A stretch of 46,950 bases of DNA from Patescibacteria group bacterium. GTDB lineage: Bacteria; Patescibacteriota; Microgenomatia; Levybacterales; UBA12049. Numbering within the stretch: the first letter of the stretch is position 1; every line of letters begins with the position of its first letter. Location: NCBI GenBank assembly GCA_023484045.1, contig JAMDAA010000001.1, positions 1 through 46,950 on the forward strand, read 5' to 3'. A model generated the notes under the pieces. That model did no database searches, was not told where the DNA came from, and saw only the letters and a program-made list of their open reading frames with translations. The translations under genes were made by a program, and so were the position numbers. Below, in pieces: positions 2,953 to 20,149 of the stretch.

Positions 2953-4092
2953 ATGGATCCTATACAAACAGGTAATAGTTCTAGTGATAATAAAGATGTC
3001 GAAATAAAAAATTCTTCTAATGCGAGCGCTGCTGCAGACCAGATAAGACGACTCGGAGAAAAAATCGAAGACGCAAATTTACCCGAAGATCTTAAACAGC
3101 TTCTTATCGAAAGAATTCAAAGATTAACACTTCTCCGGGCGTCTTCCGGATATTTAAGTCCGAATTATATTATCGAATACGAAAACACGTCTTCTTATAT
3201 TAATTGGACTGTAAGTCTTCCGTGGGGGAAAATGACAAACGATATTTTGGATTTGGTAAAAGCGAAAGAAATTTTAAACAAAAACCATTATGGGTTAAAT
3301 TCGGTTAAGGACAGAATTTTAGAATATTTAGCATCGATAATTTTAAACGAAAAAAATAGAACTTCGGAAGTTGACTTTACGGTTTTACGGGCGCCGATTA
3401 TTTGTTTAGTAGGCCTTGTCGGAACCGGAAAAACAACACTAGCCTATTCTATAGCAGAGGCACTCGGTCGAAAATTTGAGCGTATTCCTTTCGGAGGAAT
3501 GGGAGATTCGAGGGCGTTGAGAGGTCAATCACGCGCATTTGCTGATGCAGAGCCAGGATTAATAATAAAAAAACTCGTTCATTCACAGGCAAAAAATTCG
3601 GTCATACTCCTTGATGAATTGGATAGAGTTTCTCAAGAAGCACGGGCCGATATAATGGGAGTACTCGTTGAGCTTTTGGACCCGGAACAAAACAGGGCGT
3701 TTACAGATCATTATATCGATTACCCATTCGATCTTTCTCAAGTTCTCTTTGTCGCGACCGCAAATAATACGACAAATATTTCAACGGCAGTTTTAGACAG
3801 GCTCGAAATTATTCAGATGCCGTCTTACACGGATGCTGAGAAAACTGCGATCGGAAAAGATTATTTGTTTCCGAAAATTCGTCTACAGACGGGTCTGCAA
3901 GAGAATCAATTGGTTATTGACGAGAATGTTTGGTCGTTAATTATTCGACCGTTGGGATTCGATTCGGGAATAAGAAGTCTTGAGAGAACAATTCAAGGGG
4001 TTTGCCGGAAAACGGCGCGTTCCATCGTCGAAGGCAAAGGCCAATCTTTTCATATCACAGCAGAAAATATTAAAGAATTTATGTCTCAGTAA
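2953..4092 (+). CDS. Lon-type AAA+ ATPase lacking the N-terminal LON domain and the C-terminal protease domain
   Basis: Lon-like motifs: WTVSLPWG, LNKNHYGLNSVKDRILEYLA, Walker A GLVGTGKTT, Walker B ILLDELD, LLDPEQN.AF.DHY...PFDLSQVLF.ATAN; ends right after the alpha subdomain. Start moved from 2803 to 2953 because the upstream part translates the palindrome cluster. Confidence 0.85.
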   Translation: MDPIQTGNSSSDNKDVEIKNSSNASAAADQIRRLGEKIEDANLPEDLKQLLIERIQRLTLLRASSGYLSPNYIIEYENTSSYINWTVSLPWGKMTNDILDLVKAKEILNKNHYGLNSVKDRILEYLASIILNEKNRTSEVDFTVLRAPIICLVGLVGTGKTTLAYSIAEALGRKFERIPFGGMGDSRALRGQSRAFADAEPGLIIKKLVHSQAKNSVILLDELDRVSQEARADIMGVLVELLDPEQNRAFTDHYIDYPFDLSQVLFVATANNTTNISTAVLDRLEIIQMPSYTDAEKTAIGKDYLFPKIRLQTGLQENQLVIDENVWSLIIRPLGFDSGIRSLERTIQGVCRKTARSIVEGKGQSFHITAENIKEFMSQ

Positions 4093-4095
4093 TTT

Positions 4096-5751
4096 ATGAA
4101 TAATCAAATTTCTTTTATCCCTCTAGGTGGAGTCGGCGATGTCACGCGAAACATGTATTTATACGAGACAGAAAGCGAGATATTAATTATTGATTGTGGT
4201 TTGGGTTTTGCCGACGAGACGATGCTCGGCGTCGATCTTTTGTTGCCCGACATATCGTATTTATTAAAGACAAAAAAGAAAATTGCCGGAATGGTGTTAA
4301 CCCACGGACATGAAGATCATATCGGCGCGCTTCCTTATATTTTACCCCAACTTCCGATTTTTCCGATATTCGCAACGCCTTTGACTGCCGCGCTCGCGAA
4401 TGAGAAACTTAAAGAATTTAACGTTTCGAGTCGTGTTAAAACAGTATTGTTCGACGAACAGGAAAAAACATTAGGCAATTTCAAAATTTTATTTATCCGT
4501 GTAACACATTCGGTGCCCGATGCTTCAAACTTATTAATAAAAACTCCTGCCGGCAATTTTTACCACGGGAGTGATTTTAAATTCGATTTAACCCCAGTCG
4601 ATGGAAAAAGAACAGAATTTCGTAAGATTGTAAACGGTGCAGATAACGGCATTACTTGTTTAATGTCTGATTGTTTGGGTTCGGAGCGACCGGGATATAC
4701 ACCTTCGGAACAAAGTTTATCAGAAAGTTTTGAAAGAGAGGCGAAAGTATGCAGGGGAAAACTTATTATTACAACTTATTCGTCCAATATATCGAGACTT
4801 AATCAGGCGATAAAAGCGGGCGAAAACGTGGGTCGAAAAATTTGTTTTGTCGGAAGGTCACTAATAAAAGCGAAAGAAGTCGCGCAAAGACTCGGTTATT
4901 TAAAAATTAATAACGGATCGGAAGTACAAATTGATGATCTTAAAAAATACAACGGAAAAAATTTATTATTGATCGTTGCCGGAAGTCAAGGGCAGGAAAA
5001 TTCGGCGATGACACGGATCGCAAACGACGAACATAGGGATGTAAAATTGAATCCCCAGGACACTGTGATTTTTTCGACGGATCCGATTCCCGGAAACGAA
5101 ATTTCGGTAAATGATTTAATAGATACGATCGCAAAAAAGGGTGCGAGAGTCGTTTATTCTGACATAAGCGGAGATTTTCATGTATCCGGACACGGTTCGG
5201 CGCTCGACATAATGCTTCTAATTTCACTTGTTAAGCCAAGATATTTCTTACCAATCGGCGGAACTTTCAGGCAAATGGTCGCTTACAGATCGCTTTGTGA
5301 AAAACTTGATTATAAGAGGGACGATGTGTTTTTAGTTGATGACGGACAGGAGATTATTTTTTCCCGGGGCAAAGTAACTTTAGGTAAAAAAATCGAAATT
5401 AAAAATGTATATGTAGATCAAATTAGCGGTGAAGAAGTCGAAGGTTTTGTTTTAAGAGACCGTCAAAAACTTTCGGAAGGGGGATTGGTTATTTTGTTGA
5501 CTGAAGTTTCGTCATCGACGGGCGAGATCGTTAATACGCCGACGATTATAATTCGCGGATTTCCTCAATCAGATATTAAAACCTTGGGTGGAAAACTCGA
5601 AAGACATTTAAAAAATACGATCAAAGTAAAGGCAGGAGGTGTGACAGACTGGATTTATATAAGAAAATTAATCGGCGAAACAAGCGAAAGATTTATTTTT
5701 AGAGAACTTCATCGTCACCCTCTGGTTTTACCGGTTGTTATCAAAGTATAA
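4096..5751 (+). CDS. rnj: ribonuclease J
   Basis: 551 aa; PLGG, THGHEDHIG metallo-beta-lactamase motif, THSVPD, beta-CASP region, HVSGH. Confidence 0.96.
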   Translation: MNNQISFIPLGGVGDVTRNMYLYETESEILIIDCGLGFADETMLGVDLLLPDISYLLKTKKKIAGMVLTHGHEDHIGALPYILPQLPIFPIFATPLTAALANEKLKEFNVSSRVKTVLFDEQEKTLGNFKILFIRVTHSVPDASNLLIKTPAGNFYHGSDFKFDLTPVDGKRTEFRKIVNGADNGITCLMSDCLGSERPGYTPSEQSLSESFEREAKVCRGKLIITTYSSNISRLNQAIKAGENVGRKICFVGRSLIKAKEVAQRLGYLKINNGSEVQIDDLKKYNGKNLLLIVAGSQGQENSAMTRIANDEHRDVKLNPQDTVIFSTDPIPGNEISVNDLIDTIAKKGARVVYSDISGDFHVSGHGSALDIMLLISLVKPRYFLPIGGTFRQMVAYRSLCEKLDYKRDDVFLVDDGQEIIFSRGKVTLGKKIEIKNVYVDQISGEEVEGFVLRDRQKLSEGGLVILLTEVSSSTGEIVNTPTIIIRGFPQSDIKTLGGKLERHLKNTIKVKAGGVTDWIYIRKLIGETSERFIFRELHRHPLVLPVVIKV

Positions 5752-16732: not shown

Positions 16733-18532
16733 TTAATTTTCGAGTTTCGCGTAGATTCGGCGTTGTCCGTGACCGATATTCTCTTGCTTTATTATAGTAA
16801 ACCTTTTGAGCTTACCTGTAAAATCCACGTGCGGTCCGCCACAAATTTCTTTACTAAAACCATTAATTATATAAACTTTTACTTTATCGGCATATTTTTC
16901 AGTAAAAAAACCTAAAGCACCAGATTTTAACGCTTCTTCTTTATCTACTATTTCAAAAGTTACCGGCAAATTTTCGTTGATCTTTTCGTTTATCAAATCT
17001 TCGATTTGTCTTATTTCTTCGTCTGTCAATTTTTCTGAGTGTGAAAAGTCAAAACGCAAACGCTCGACAGTAATATTGCTTCCCTTTTGTTCTACGTGAC
17101 TACCTAATATTTTTCTTAAAGCAGCGTGTAATAAGTGAGTCGCGGTGTGATATTTTATCGACATTTCGGAATTGTCTATTAACCCTCCTTTGAATTTTTT
17201 CTGGGCACCTGCTCTTGACAGTTTTTGGTGTTCTTCCATTTTTTTTGCAAATTCCTGTTCGTTAAATTCATATCCTAAGCTTTTTATTTGCGTCGGAGAA
17301 AGCCCGTGAGTAGAATAGAGAAGAAACGCATCATCGGACGAGATCGTTGAGACACCTTTTAGTTCATCTCCGATTTTATATTTTTTTTCGATCAATATTT
17401 TTGCTTTTTCGCGGGTCGTTAGATAAGATTGCTCTTCTTCTAAAATTGTGTTTTTGATATTTTCGAATTTTTGATCCAAATCGGGATCTGTTTCTTTGTA
17501 TTGTCCAATAATAGATTCGATTATCGACGTAATTTCTTTCCCGCCGATTTGATAAAAATTGTCGAAACCTCTCCTTATTAATCTTCTTAAAATATACCCC
17601 TGTTCTTTGTTCGACGGGGTGATATTTGATGCCGTTATAAAAGTTGATGCAATAAAATGATCTGTCATTATCCTCATTTCTTTTTTATGATCCTCGTATT
17701 TTTTCCCTGTTTCATTCTCGATAGCTTTTATTATTGGAGAAAAAAGACTTGTTTGAAAAATATCTGATTTATTTTCAATAGCGGCTAGTAATCTTTCTAA
17801 TCCGCCTCCAAAATCGACATTTTTTTGTGACAATTTTTCAAAATCATTATTCCGTATTTTCTTGTATTCCATAAAGACACTGTTTCCGATTTCTAAGAAT
17901 TTTTCACAGTCGCAGTTTATATGACATCTTTCGCCGTATTTTTTATCGTGTTCTATTCCCAAATCAAAAAACACTTCGCTGTCTGGCCCGCCCGGTTCAC
18001 CAATCGGCATGTCTTTTGGAATACCTGATCTTGACCACCAATTTTGTTTTGGTCCATAATAAAAAATTCTATTTTGTGAATTTATTCCAGCATTTTCAAA
18101 AAGATTTTTCCAAATCTTTGCCGATTCTTCGTCTTTTGGAATATCATCAAAGCCCTTAAAAACACTAACATAAAGCTTATTAGTTGGTAGCCCCAAACCT
18201 TTTGTTAAAAATTCAAAAAACCACGGAATTTGTTCACTTTTAAAATAATCACCCAAACTCCAATTTCCGAGCATTCTGAAAAACGTGATATGTCGATTGT
18301 CGCCGACCTCATCAACATCCTGCGCCCTAAAACAATTTTGAACATTCACCAATCTTTTTCCCATTGGGTGCAGTTCACCCAAAAAGTAGGGGACCAAAGG
18401 TTGCATACCCGAACTCGTAAAAAGGGTAGTCGGGTCGTTTTGCGGAACAATTGGCGAATTTTCGATCCTTTTATGTCCGCGTTTCTCAAAAAAAGAAATA
18501 TAAATATCGATAATTTCCCGCGCATTCAACAT
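16733..18532 (-). CDS. alaS: alanine--tRNA ligase (short form without C-Ala domain)
   Basis: DPTTLFTSSGMQP, RHITFFRMLGNWSLGDYFK, DFGGGLER, editing-domain HTATHLLH and EICGGPH; 599 aa. Confidence 0.96.
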   Translation of the reverse strand: MLNAREIIDIYISFFEKRGHKRIENSPIVPQNDPTTLFTSSGMQPLVPYFLGELHPMGKRLVNVQNCFRAQDVDEVGDNRHITFFRMLGNWSLGDYFKSEQIPWFFEFLTKGLGLPTNKLYVSVFKGFDDIPKDEESAKIWKNLFENAGINSQNRIFYYGPKQNWWSRSGIPKDMPIGEPGGPDSEVFFDLGIEHDKKYGERCHINCDCEKFLEIGNSVFMEYKKIRNNDFEKLSQKNVDFGGGLERLLAAIENKSDIFQTSLFSPIIKAIENETGKKYEDHKKEMRIMTDHFIASTFITASNITPSNKEQGYILRRLIRRGFDNFYQIGGKEITSIIESIIGQYKETDPDLDQKFENIKNTILEEEQSYLTTREKAKILIEKKYKIGDELKGVSTISSDDAFLLYSTHGLSPTQIKSLGYEFNEQEFAKKMEEHQKLSRAGAQKKFKGGLIDNSEMSIKYHTATHLLHAALRKILGSHVEQKGSNITVERLRFDFSHSEKLTDEEIRQIEDLINEKINENLPVTFEIVDKEEALKSGALGFFTEKYADKVKVYIINGFSKEICGGPHVDFTGKLKRFTIIKQENIGHGQRRIYAKLEN

Positions 18533-18547: not shown

Positions 18548-18598
18548 CGAAAATACTTCTTAATCTTTTAATTTGATCTTTTAACATTAATTATTCCA

Positions 18599-18628
18599 TT
18601 GACAGTTTTAGAGTAAATCAACTATCCT
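18599..18628 (+). promoter_or_regulatory. putative promoter of the TrpR-like gene
   Basis: TTGACA (18599-18604), 18 nt, TATCCT (18623-18628); the palindrome starts 2 nt later. Confidence 0.5.
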
Positions 18629-18629
18629 A

Positions 18630-18657
18630 TGTATAATGCACTATTGCAATATACAAT
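18630..18657. repeat. palindromic direct repeat / putative operator, upstream copy
   Basis: tgtataatgcactattgcaatatacaat; 26/28 identical to 19075-19102; overlaps the start codon. Confidence 0.85.
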
Positions 18658-19066
18658 GACTCAGGTATCAAAACATAAACTTTCAAAGAAAACAGAAACG
18701 GAGTTAATCGGGAGTTTGATTACGGTGTTTTCAACAATAACTAACTCCAAAGAAATGGTTGTATTTATAAACGCTTTTTTAACCGATACAGAAAAACTTA
18801 TGCTGGCAAAACGCTTGGCACTTATTATTCTTATTTTAGAAGGAATGCCGGATTCACAAATATCGAGTATTCTTCATGTAACACGCATAACAGTTGCAAA
18901 AATGCGATATTTTTATGAAGCACGGGGTAAAGAAGGATACGATATTGCGCTTTCTAAAATAAATGTAGATAAAAGATTGAAAGCCTTTAAAAAAGTTCTT
19001 ATATCGCTTGCGCGCTATTCTGTTCGCGCCGCCGGTGGATATGTAAAACCCGGTATTATTGACTAA
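18656..19066 (+). CDS. TrpR-like (YerC/YecD-type) helix-turn-helix protein
   Basis: FLTDTEKLMLAKRLALIILILEG....QISSILHVTRITV family pattern; start taken at the second ATG (MTQVSK). Confidence 0.8.
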   Translation: MTQVSKHKLSKKTETELIGSLITVFSTITNSKEMVVFINAFLTDTEKLMLAKRLALIILILEGMPDSQISSILHVTRITVAKMRYFYEARGKEGYDIALSKINVDKRLKAFKKVLISLARYSVRAAGGYVKPGIID

Positions 19067-19070
19067 ATAA

Positions 19071-19104
19071 TTATTGTATATTGCACTATTACAATATACA
19101 ATAA
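19071..19104. repeat. palindromic direct repeat, downstream copy
   Basis: ttattgtatattg-cactatta-caatatacaataa, a perfect 13-bp inverted repeat beginning 5 nt after the stop codon. Confidence 0.9.
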
Positions 19105-19195
19105 AAGCGTAAGGTGATGGATTGCGTTCAAGATCCATGGAAGGAATGCCGTGGTACTTCAGTTTCTGACAAGAGGCCGATTTAATGAAGAAGAG

Positions 19196-20149
19196 CTATC
19201 TTTTTATCTGCGACTGGCCCCATAAGAATGGGGCGTTTTGGTGTTTTAGATAAGAAAAAGCAGAAAATGCAGCCCTGGCGCCAAGACCGATTGCTGTTGA
19301 GATTTGTTCGATCGAAAGCCCGACGCTCACGATATCGCCGGCTGCAAAAACTCCTTGAATATTTGTTGTGAGTTTATCGTCTACTTTAATATATCCTTTT
19401 TCATCAATATTAATTCCCAGGGGAATCGCGAGCGCGCTACCAGGAACTCCGCCGATTTCGATAAAAACTTTTTCAATATTTAATGTTTTTTCGGTATCAT
19501 TTGCCTTAATTTTTATTCCGGTTGCTTTTTGCCCGTCGCCTAAAATTTCTAAAACTTGTGTGCTATATAGAATTTCGATTTTCGGATCATTTTTTATTTT
19601 TTCGATAAGAATCGGGTCGCTTCTTAGTTCAGAGCCGCGATATATAAGATAAATTTTACTCGCAGCGCTAGCAAGTTGTATTACCGCCTGAACCGCGCTG
19701 TTTGCGCCGCCGATAACCGCAACGGTTTTATTTTCGTATTCAAATTTTTCACATGTTGCGCAGTATTGTACGCCTTTTCCAGTATATTCATTTTCTCCCG
19801 TAATATTTAATTTTCGCCTTTCTGCGCCGGTCGCAATAATAAGAGTTGAGCTATCAAAATTTTTTCCGCTTTCGGTCGTTAATCGGAAGCCGTTTTCAAT
19901 CTTTTCGATTTTAGAAACAGACTCGTTTAAAATTTCTCCTCCGCGTTTTTTTACTTGAGTAGCCATTTTTTCAGCTAAGTCTTTTCCTGAAATCTCTTCG
20001 AATCCGGGATAGTTTATAATATCTGGCGCAAGACTCATTTGCCCACCTAATATGTCTCCGACTACAATATGCTTTAATTTAAAGCACGAGGCATAAATTG
20101 AAGCGGTGAGTCCTGAAGGTCCGCAGCCGATAATTATAAGATCGTACAT
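19196..20149 (-). CDS. trxB: thioredoxin reductase (FAD/NADPH)
   Basis: IIIGCGPSGL FAD motif, YCATC redox motif, VIGGANSA NADPH motif, GVFAAGD. Confidence 0.9.
   Translation of the reverse strand: MYDLIIIGCGPSGLTASIYASCFKLKHIVVGDILGGQMSLAPDIINYPGFEEISGKDLAEKMATQVKKRGGEILNESVSKIEKIENGFRLTTESGKNFDSSTLIIATGAERRKLNITGENEYTGKGVQYCATCEKFEYENKTVAVIGGANSAVQAVIQLASAASKIYLIYRGSELRSDPILIEKIKNDPKIEILYSTQVLEILGDGQKATGIKIKANDTEKTLNIEKVFIEIGGVPGSALAIPLGINIDEKGYIKVDDKLTTNIQGVFAAGDIVSVGLSIEQISTAIGLGARAAFSAFSYLKHQNAPFLWGQSQIKR

Follow-up and report, generated by a model that had tools for sequence, protein, structure and literature searches.

In a 46,950-nt stretch of DNA from a Patescibacteria group bacterium (assembly GCA_023484045.1, contig JAMDAA010000001.1; hereafter the window, meaning the whole stretch), the gene for a 136-residue helix-turn-helix (HTH) protein of predicted TrpR fold (18656-19066, plus strand; hereafter the regulator) is bracketed by two near-identical palindromic sites. 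We found that this bracketed layout is conserved among relatives of the regulator, that the type of palindrome co-varies with the recognition helix of the protein, and that the second site is anchored to the stop codon of the regulator gene itself. The reading that we favor, and hold to be moderately probable, is that a dimer of the TrpR-fold protein binds both palindromes, with site 1 serving for autorepression and site 2 as a second operator of the same gene, acting through either a DNA loop or a roadblock. Here, binding, repression, and the role of site 2 are what we infer from the comparison of sequences.

Our repeat search returned a 28-nt direct repeat, TGTATAWTGCACTATTRCAATATACAAT, at positions 18630-18657 and 19075-19102, with 26 of 28 positions identical (93%) and 445 nt from start to start. 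The upstream copy (core 18630-18655, TGTATAATGCACTATTGCAATATACA; probable operator 1) spans the expected transcription start and ends with the AT of the start codon, and the downstream copy (19071-19104, with its core at 19075-19100, TGTATATTGCACTATTACAATATACA; probable operator 2) begins 5 nt past the stop codon. The latter is an inverted repeat, the 13-nt arms of which (19071-19083 and 19092-19104) are 100% complementary and enclose an 8-nt spacer. Thus, both the near-identical 28-bp pair 445 bp apart and the perfect 13-8-13 downstream repeat, which an earlier note on this DNA had described from the letters alone, were recovered at the same positions. The upstream copy is a weaker palindrome (score 8), and as a plus-strand RNA hairpin it has a calculated energy of -8.6 kcal/mol, as compared with -12.2 kcal/mol for the downstream copy. 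The two 8-nt spacers (CACTATTG and CACTATTA) stand in direct orientation and share seven of eight positions. When the 46,950 nt were searched with the 26-mer core and up to three mismatches allowed, there were two matches, both of them flanking the gene (mean of 0.00 in shuffled sequences, none of which reached two). Likewise, the skeleton TGTATA-N14-TATACA with up to one mismatch occurs in the window only at the two flanking sites (0.06 expected). By chance, no such repeat pair is expected in the window.

Conservation of the bracketed layout

For comparison, we gathered 80 genomic loci of relatives from Levy-, Curtiss-, Shapiro-, Gottesman-, Woese-, Roizman-, Kaiser-, and Paceibacteria, along with others. 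Nearly all of these have a palindrome just 5′ of the start codon, and most have a matching copy just 3′ of the stop codon. With a match defined as a local alignment score between upstream and downstream flank above 11.5, which is the 99th percentile of control segments from the same locus, the flanks match each other in 66 of the 78 homologous loci with both flanks available. The window locus shows this same family layout, with cognate palindromes before the ATG and after the stop that match each other. Across lineages, the palindrome types vary widely (TGTATAATAAGTTAGTATATTATACA, TGCATCATATATCGATATATGATGCA, GGTATGATATATCATACC, TGTACGATATATCGTACA, and ATTATCCGATTAATCGATTATTCGGATAAT), though the copies at any one gene match. 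Because most family sites are spacer-less perfect palindromes, the 13-8-13 geometry is, as far as these sites go, particular to the lineage of the window. The motif class TGYATNNT-N10-ANNATRCA, when searched for in 207 kb of Levybacteria-type loci, is found almost only at both ends of the gene, with two extra copies, and it is absent from the 13-kb locus of a relative that has no regulator gene at its trxB-alaS junction. No clear pattern between the loss of site 2 and the C-terminal tail of the protein was seen in the family. As a separate observation, one locus (L013) carries three cognate palindromes (2800-2829, 2969-2998, and 3413-3442), the first and second of which bracket a minus-strand tRNA-Arg gene, and the second and third the regulator gene.

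More conspicuously, when the loci are sorted by recognition helix, they group by palindrome type. Here, the helix TRITVAKMRYF is paired with TGTATAAT..ATTATACA, TRETVAR or TLETVAR with TGCATCATATATCGATATATGATGCA, TRVTVS with TGTATCAT..ATGATACA, GVTRQTVxRxWKD with GGTATGATATATCATACC, and SMSPSTxDIMSLK with TGTACGATATATCGTACA. Two paralogues within one genome that are 54% identical (L010 and L012) have different palindrome pairs, as do another two (L003 and L014), and two that are 83% identical and have the same helix (L035 and L055) share one palindrome type. Since diverged paralogues in the same genome carry different pairs, the determinant of the palindrome must be local to the gene. The earlier note had asked whether each TrpR-like paralogue is flanked by its own palindrome pair, and this proved to be so, both in the 66 of 78 matching loci and in the paralogues that differ or share. 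Moreover, the outer half-site TGTA...TACA is as in the operators of TrpR and of proteobacterial HisR (PMC9413887). As the palindrome tracks the helix, as paralogues differ, and as the half-site fits TrpR operators, we infer that the palindromes are the regulator's own binding sites. The autorepression through cognate palindromes that had been suggested earlier is therefore well supported by comparison, namely by the layout, the helix tracking, and the paralogues.

As for the geometry, the center of the upstream site lies a median of 18.5 nt (interquartile range 15.5-26.5) before the ATG, and that of the downstream site a median of 21.5 nt (interquartile range 16.5-37.5) after the stop (57 pairs). 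The proximal edge of site 2 is 1-8 nt past the stop in most Levybacteria-type loci (5 nt in the window). In 43 of 54 loci, site 2 is closer to the stop of the regulator gene than to the next feature (p=1.4e-5), and of the 26 loci with a spacer of at least 100 nt, 24 follow this rule (median relative position, 0.17). Site 2 is present irrespective of the direction of the next feature, which runs the same way as the regulator gene in 39 loci and toward it in 15, the window being one of these. Being anchored to the stop codon and kept whether the neighbor is co-directional or convergent, site 2 is a part of the regulator gene's 3′ end and not, as a rule, an operator of the next gene.

The TrpR-fold protein, its predicted promoter, and its neighbors

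The regulator has the recognition helix LHVTRITVAKMRYF and a conserved C-terminal tail, RAAGGYVKPGIID (RAAGGYVKPxILD in its family form). By sequence models, its assignment to TrpR is weak, with 19.9 bits for Pfam PF01371 (cut-off of 27), 22.8 bits for HTH_23 (cut-off of 24.6), and nothing useful in NCBIfam (TIGR01321 at 12.9 against a cut-off of 67), though many homologues carry a precomputed PF01371 match. Confirmation came from structure prediction, since an AlphaFold2 model with seven helices and a mean predicted local distance difference test (pLDDT) score of 81 returned only Trp repressors and TrpR-like proteins at the top of a Foldseek search of the PDB. All top 26 matches are of this kind (3frw, 3kor, 1trr, and 3g1c among them), with a template-modeling (TM) score of 0.66-0.76 by target length and a probability of 0.96-1.00. 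A profile of 30 family members likewise matches the YerC/HisR-type structures 3frw, 3g1c, and 3kor, the best being 3frw (E=1.3e-4). The TrpR/YerC-like call of the earlier note, weak as it is by sequence, is thus borne out by the predicted fold and the profile, and on the strength of the model the regulator has the TrpR fold with its HTH in helices D and E. Relative to this fold, the monomer model has two extra C-terminal helices (residues 92-126), which are candidates for dimer-dimer contacts. We found only the HTH in the regulator and no HUH/Y1 transposase domain or catalytic motif, and there was no match to it in PHROGs or PADLOC. A search yielded 163 matches at 90% clustering, from sources such as Levybacteria and Patescibacteria, and in a full scan clustered at 50% identity, 708 clusters passed E<=1e-10 and 2,164 passed E<=1e-3. 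To judge by these homologues, the regulator is a member of a large Patescibacteria-specific family that forms a clade separate from HisR/YerC.

Immediately upstream of the gene is a predicted sigma-70-type promoter (18599-18628, plus strand) consisting of TTGACA, 18 nt, and TATCCT, with 10 of 12 consensus matches. The upstream palindrome begins 2 nt past the -10 box and from there extends across the expected start site into the ATG, so that the earlier placement of this copy over the predicted start and the first bases of the ATG agrees with a promoter match ending at 18628 and a repeat ending at 18657. In two relatives (L087 and L088), TTGACA-N18-TAcTAT stands at this position, immediately 5′ of the palindrome. 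The repeat closes with the AT (18656-57) of the start codon that homologues use (MTQVSK aligned with MPxVSK). There is also an in-frame ATG at 18629, which is probably not used, given that homologues start with MPxVSK at the position equivalent to 18656. At the other end of the gene, the conserved C-terminal codons (I/L)(L/I/F)D-stop read TTGAC(T), a -35-like hexamer found at 19058-19063 in the window and in homologous stop regions, 11 nt 5′ of site 2. As a promoter element this was dismissed, the spacing to any -10-like hexamer being wrong in the window.

The neighbors of the regulator gene are the divergent alaS (16733-18532, minus strand) and a convergent trxB-like gene (19196-20149, minus strand), and further genes typed nearby are rpoB, a sortase gene, and a Baseplate_J-like gene. 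As had been noted earlier, there is no recombinase, transposase, or trp gene nearby, which holds for the six neighbor genes that were typed, the rest of the 47-kb window not having been scanned. We also noticed a G+C-rich hairpin with a T-run (GCCCCATAAGAATGGGGC GTTTTGGTGT) on the plus strand at 19217-19234, inside the 3′ end of the convergent trxB-like gene and 150 nt past the regulator stop. This could be a real plus-strand terminator, or it may only reflect the coding sequence, because a similar hairpin is found in a relative that has no regulator at trxB-alaS (L082). In three relatives with an rpmG-regulator-tRNA context (L005, L006, and L007), the tRNA gene downstream of the regulator is that of tRNA-Trp, and a 'trp repressor gene' at the head of a tRNA-Trp/TrpRS-A operon in candidate phyla radiation (CPR) bacteria has been mentioned in passing (PMC5370408). 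This adjacency may reflect a true connection with tryptophan, or it may be a coincidence that comes with the conserved rpmG/tRNA-Trp/secE neighborhood.

Proposed mechanism and the alternatives

As we picture it, protein bound to site 1, which lies directly past the -10 box and over the start site up to the ATG, would shut off the regulator's own promoter (negative autoregulation). For site 2, its anchoring to the stop codon brings two options into consideration, either of which fits. In the first of these, site 2 would be the second anchor of a protein-bridged loop of ~445 bp around the gene, like that between OL and OR for lambda CI. In the other, protein at site 2 would halt RNA polymerase at the end of the reading frame, like LacI at O3, and would also shield the regulator gene from convergent trxB transcription. 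As polymerase stalls ~14 nt before a roadblock, the RNA would end at or just inside the stop codon, which could feed back on the protein output.

Several results weigh against this two-operator reading, and among these is the Pfam PF01371 score below threshold. Moreover, the center-to-center spacing of the sites (419-611 nt, median of 460) gives no signal of helical phasing at periods of 10-11.3 nt (Rayleigh p >=0.33) and hence no support for a loop. Helical phasing counts little at ~450 bp, and the spacing neither supports nor excludes a loop of this size. Where sites are asymmetric, the two copies share their deviations in the same orientation (17 direct versus 2 inverted), and the identity between copies stops sharply at 26-34 nt. 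The 10-nt center of the window sites, GCACTATTRC, is alike in both copies yet differs from that of all close relatives (AGGTTAAYCY), even though the recognition helix is identical to that of L004 (the relatives' version of the site is TGTATAATAGGTTAATCTATTATACA, and the center stretch of the site GCACTATT). A lineage-specific center shared in this way is suggestive of copying from site to site more than of selection for binding acting on each independently. Lastly, the cognate palindrome of one relative occurs in frame within essential genes, where one would not usually expect a promoter operator.

This last finding came from a metagenome scan with GGTATGATATATCATACC, which gave at least 120 loci. 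Only same-genome contigs were used here, and many single matches may be from unrelated organisms. The family gene is present in 17 of the loci listed, all of which have an adjoining site (both sites in 16, and the downstream one alone in L124, the contig of which breaks off within the gene). One Parcubacteria genome of 55% G+C (the same as that of L026) has at least eight exact copies of this A/T-rich 18-mer on contigs of equal coverage, and in that genome GGTATGATATATCATACC is the cognate site of the TrpR-like gene. Copies were located at L121:2731-2748, L102:2259, L115:1343, L118:1085, L135:9658, and L155:3254, and several of them fall inside open reading frames, which by N-terminal motifs are uvrC-, dus-, mutY-, holB-, and murD-like. 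In ArgRS, the 18-mer encodes GMIYHT in frame, as an insertion in a gap-rich variable loop that homologues do not have. In addition, GGTATGATATATCATACC stands 17-56 nt upstream of two small XRE-type HTH gene families (~90 aa and ~72 aa) in 19 metagenome contigs among the matches listed (L103, L116, L119, L127, L128, L139, L140, L162, L187, and others; L096, L107, L132, L138, L143, L201, and L204). These sites may be either a regulon of the TrpR-like protein or unrelated self-operators.

The site-gene-site module has also moved among relatives. When metagenome contigs were placed on the window, one relative (L081) joined 18551 to 19338 with only 147 nt between. In all, the trxB-alaS junction is without the module in six related contigs, which represent five distinct organisms at three depths of relatedness. 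In one of these (L081; TrxB 73% identical to that of the window), trxB is next to alaS. In L082, which belongs to the NCBI metagenome-assembled genome GCA_023485715.1, TrxB is 87% identical and the order rpoC-rpoB, trxB-alaS-Baseplate_J-sortase is as in the window; L083 is a second contig that carries the same genes as L082. In these three, the TGGTATAAT promoter of alaS comes within 9-14 nt of the trxB stop. More distant are L209, L210, and L212/213 (TrxB 66-68%), where trxB stands directly before alaS with spacers of 40-238 nt. None of the six junctions holds a palindrome, a site fragment, or a gene remnant. The segment that they lack measures ~640 nt (18556-19195, with ends good to ~5 nt) and comprises promoter, site, gene, and site along with 74 and 95 nt of outer flank. 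Its ends show a 6-nt inverted match, CTTCTT (18556-61) and AAGAAG (19188-93), which may be due to chance; with only this match and a vague TTCR repeat, we do not trust it as evidence of terminal inverted repeats or a target duplication. Because related contigs join trxB to alaS without the module, and nucleotide identities give ((window, L082), L081) in agreement with the TrxB tree, by this comparison it is the window that carries a derived insertion, the whole module having been gained at trxB-alaS in this lineage. The first 255 residues of AlaRS, being 84% identical between L081 and L082 and 78-81% to the window, are at odds with the nucleotide identities and TrxB, a small incongruence in the gene that adjoins the insertion. 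An import by homologous recombination with the alaS 5′ end is unlikely, as nucleotide identity to L082 is flat along alaS. In L210, the 238-nt trxB-alaS spacer (4985-5222) contains an unrelated hairpin (TTTCAGGATCTCGC...GCGAGATGCTGAAA-like) and GAAAATTG repeats, from which it follows that the inserts gathered at this junction vary from lineage to lineage.

Close homologues of the regulator occur in at least four contexts, which are alaS/trxB, alaS/123-125-aa gene (L087 and L088), FeS_assembly_P/recR (L084-86), and rpmG/tRNA (L004-7 and L014). Since trxB-alaS synteny is kept in all six contigs at similar divergence, the module relocates more readily than its neighbors. Taken together with the direct copying of asymmetric sites, the shared center of the window copies, and the dispersed 18-mers, this supports an alternative in which palindrome and protein are a self-propagating pair, REPtron-like though without a transposase. 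Here, the sites would be copied or homogenized and the module would move as a unit, with the protein marking, protecting, or helping to spread the sites; otherwise, the pair would be a chromosome organizer like ParB/parS or MatP/matS. In either form, autoregulation would be secondary. We regard this as unlikely, for the protein is a 136-aa HTH protein with no catalytic motif and no linked HUH or recombinase gene, neither defined terminal repeats nor a clear target duplication marks the inserted segment, and the gene order in these genomes is generally fluid. Furthermore, position is stable within clades (rpmG-gene-tRNA in L004-7 and L014), and the orthologous copies of L005 and L006 are more alike than are the two copies within one genome, which argues against rapid homogenization. 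As for REP-like dispersal, the 47-kb window has no extra copy, in contrast to the one Parcubacteria relative with its eight or more.

A second alternative holds that the two sites are independent, with site 1 as an autoregulatory operator and site 2 as an operator or promoter element of the next gene or a bidirectional terminator, there being no interplay and no role of site 2 for the regulator gene. In keeping with this, 39 of 54 loci have a co-directional next feature, which often lies close by, as does argS, found 18-80 nt past site 2 in six Kaiserbacteria-type loci. The Parcubacteria palindrome TGGTATGATATATCATACCA, as read from its sequence, holds two opposed extended -10-like elements, and on the minus strand of the window site 2 is calculated to fold with -14.8 kcal/mol, followed by UAAUUAUUUAGU, 95 nt past the trxB stop. 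However, site 2 is anchored to the stop of the regulator and not to the start of the next gene (43 of 54 loci, and 24 of 26 with long spacers), it is kept in the 15 loci with a convergent neighbor, including the window, and it is not possible for palindromes as unlike as GGTGCCTCGATATATCGAGGCACC and ATTATCCGATTAATCGATTATTCGGATAAT all to be RNA polymerase elements. Nor do the sites resemble terminators, as none of 57 has a T-run (at least six T in the 9 nt past the hairpin). In the window, the stem of site 2 is all A/T-rich, and the plus-strand hairpin is followed by AAAAGCG. With such a stem, and with no T-run at any of these sites, we ruled out site 2 as an intrinsic terminator. On this balance, independent sites seem to us a poor prospect.

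Far less probable is that the palindromes act as hairpins of RNA or DNA with no sequence-specific protein partner, whether as a 5′ stem masking the AUG, a 3′ stabilizer or terminator, or cruciforms. It is true that symmetry is the conserved feature, that the folds of -8.6, -12.2, and -14.8 kcal/mol have z-scores of -1.2, -3.1, and -3.6, respectively, and that most of site 1 would be in the 5′ untranslated region if transcription starts ~7 nt past TATCCT. Against this, the copies keep their sequence, unpaired centers included, and the same 18-26-mers persist across genera, whereas hairpins conserve pairing only. Compensatory changes that keep pairing and break copy identity were not seen, the sequence type follows the recognition helix, and there is no Rfam match. 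In most relatives, moreover, site 1 is located downstream of the -35 box but ahead of the start site, outside what would be transcribed.

Finally, that an Xer-like tyrosine recombinase excises or integrates a 445-bp cassette at 13-8-13 sites, as Cre does at loxP, is largely refuted and retains almost no credence with us: for all that the downstream copy has this form, the asymmetric spacers are in direct orientation with 7 of 8 positions alike, empty trxB-alaS junctions exist, and distant homologues (L016, L019, and L021) adjoin a convergent Xer-like gene or its remnant, no empty junction keeps one site or part of one, the ends of the insertion or deletion are 74 and 95 nt outside the sites, the spacers (CACTATTG and CACTATTA) are not identical, most family sites are spacer-less and so give no directionality, the six genes typed next to the cassette include no recombinase, and the sequence of the site changes with the HTH protein rather than with a host recombinase, differing as it does between same-genome paralogues. 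The earlier note had offered an excisable cassette as its second reading and had looked to empty alaS-trxB sites with a single palindrome as a check. Empty junctions were indeed found, but none of the six contigs retains a palindrome; what finds no support is the 445-bp excision, and what stands is that the module was gained here and moved among relatives. With regard to the Xer-like genes, L021 (4019-4965) has a third cognate palindrome beside the 3′ remnant of the convergent gene, which is interrupted by an IS200-like Y1_Tnp gene (PF01797, 33 bits) with its own CCCGACGTG / CACGTCGGG hairpins. We considered this RAYT-like gene as a partner of the palindrome and rejected it, as it is a separate IS200-type insertion with hairpins of its own. 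In L016 and L019, an intact convergent Xer-like gene takes the place of the remnant, and L019 also has a LexA-like gene upstream.

Significance and comparison with known systems

To our knowledge, almost nothing is known of gene regulation in Patescibacteria (CPR), few of which are cultivated, and the family offers a regulator-operator pair that can be tested in Escherichia coli or in vitro. It also provides a natural specificity series, in which helix variants are paired with palindrome variants, including same-genome paralogues with different sites. The second site, locked to the stop codon, points to insulation or feedback-limiting of the regulator gene by a loop or a 3′ roadblock. The gain at trxB-alaS and the copying-like behavior of the sites raise the question of whether short operator palindromes spread in reduced genomes. 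Were the self-propagating pair true after all, it would amount to a system like REPtron or parS in which a plain HTH protein takes the place of a transposase. The statement in the earlier note that no described system has this layout was too strong, given the precedents of lambda cI and lacI O3, but as a conserved trait of a cellular regulator family we too found no description. Our literature searches turned up no published account of the regulator family or its bracketed layout, and as far as we found, a conserved family of probable TrpR-type autorepressors with a further operator at the 3′ end of the gene is apparently undescribed.

Among known systems with flanking repeats, REP/RAYT is alike in that a gene is flanked by copies of a palindrome, which in some relatives of the regulator are also dispersed in the genome, including inside genes. 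It differs in that the regulator has no HUH/Y1 domain, that the copy number is low (~10 per Mb, an estimate from few data), and that the window has no extra copies. Similarly, Cre/loxP resembles the window locus in the 13-8-13 form of the downstream copy and the direct orientation of both copies, but not in its spacers, which are non-identical in the window, nor in having a recombinase (none among the six typed neighbors) or a single-site empty allele, and the geometry is not family-wide.

Other known systems share the fold. E. coli TrpR, with operators at trpEDCBA, aroH, and trpR, is matched by Foldseek (1trr, 1tro, and 1zt9), and it too has a palindromic operator with outer TGTA...TACA half-sites, as well as an operator that covers its own promoter for autorepression (PMC9413887). 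In contrast, the regulator is 136 aa long, having a conserved basic tail and two further helices at its C-terminus, its site is 26 bp rather than 20, there is a second site past its own stop, and no trp genes are found among the typed neighbors. The best profile and structure matches to the regulator are to HisR/YerC (3frw, 3g1c, and 3kor), the histidine repressor of Firmicutes. HisR has lineage-specific 20-bp palindromes, is often autoregulated, and occasionally occurs as paralogues (PMC9413887). HisR proteins, however, are below 100 aa, control genes of his biosynthesis and transport, and have a site only upstream of hisR, whereas the 136-aa regulator is bracketed, has alaS, trxB, and rpoB as neighbors with no his genes nearby, and belongs to a separate Patescibacteria clade. 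Defined by proteins of <100 aa and by sites at his genes, the HisR/YerC group does not take in the regulator, the only sites of which in the 47 kb flank its own gene.

With respect to layout, there is a likeness to lambda CI, in that cI lies between OL and OR and a repressor gene thus stands between its own operators, as does the regulator gene. There, a loop between operator sets ~2.3 kb apart tunes autoregulation (PMC5880393, PMC3708714). The lambda operators are triple, 2.3 kb apart, each at a lytic promoter, and bound by a protein of unrelated fold, whereas in the window there is one site close to either end of the reading frame, the two being ~445 bp apart, and site 2 is without a promoter. 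The roadblock option has its counterpart in LacI, where O3 is located within the terminal part of lacI and serves mainly as an auxiliary operator for the operon that follows, the truncated lacI mRNA then being handled by tmRNA. Negative autoregulation by roadblock of RNA polymerase at this operator at the 3′ end of lacI has been described (PMC3711431). By comparison with O3, site 2 of the regulator starts 5 nt past the stop codon and is kept even where the next gene is convergent.

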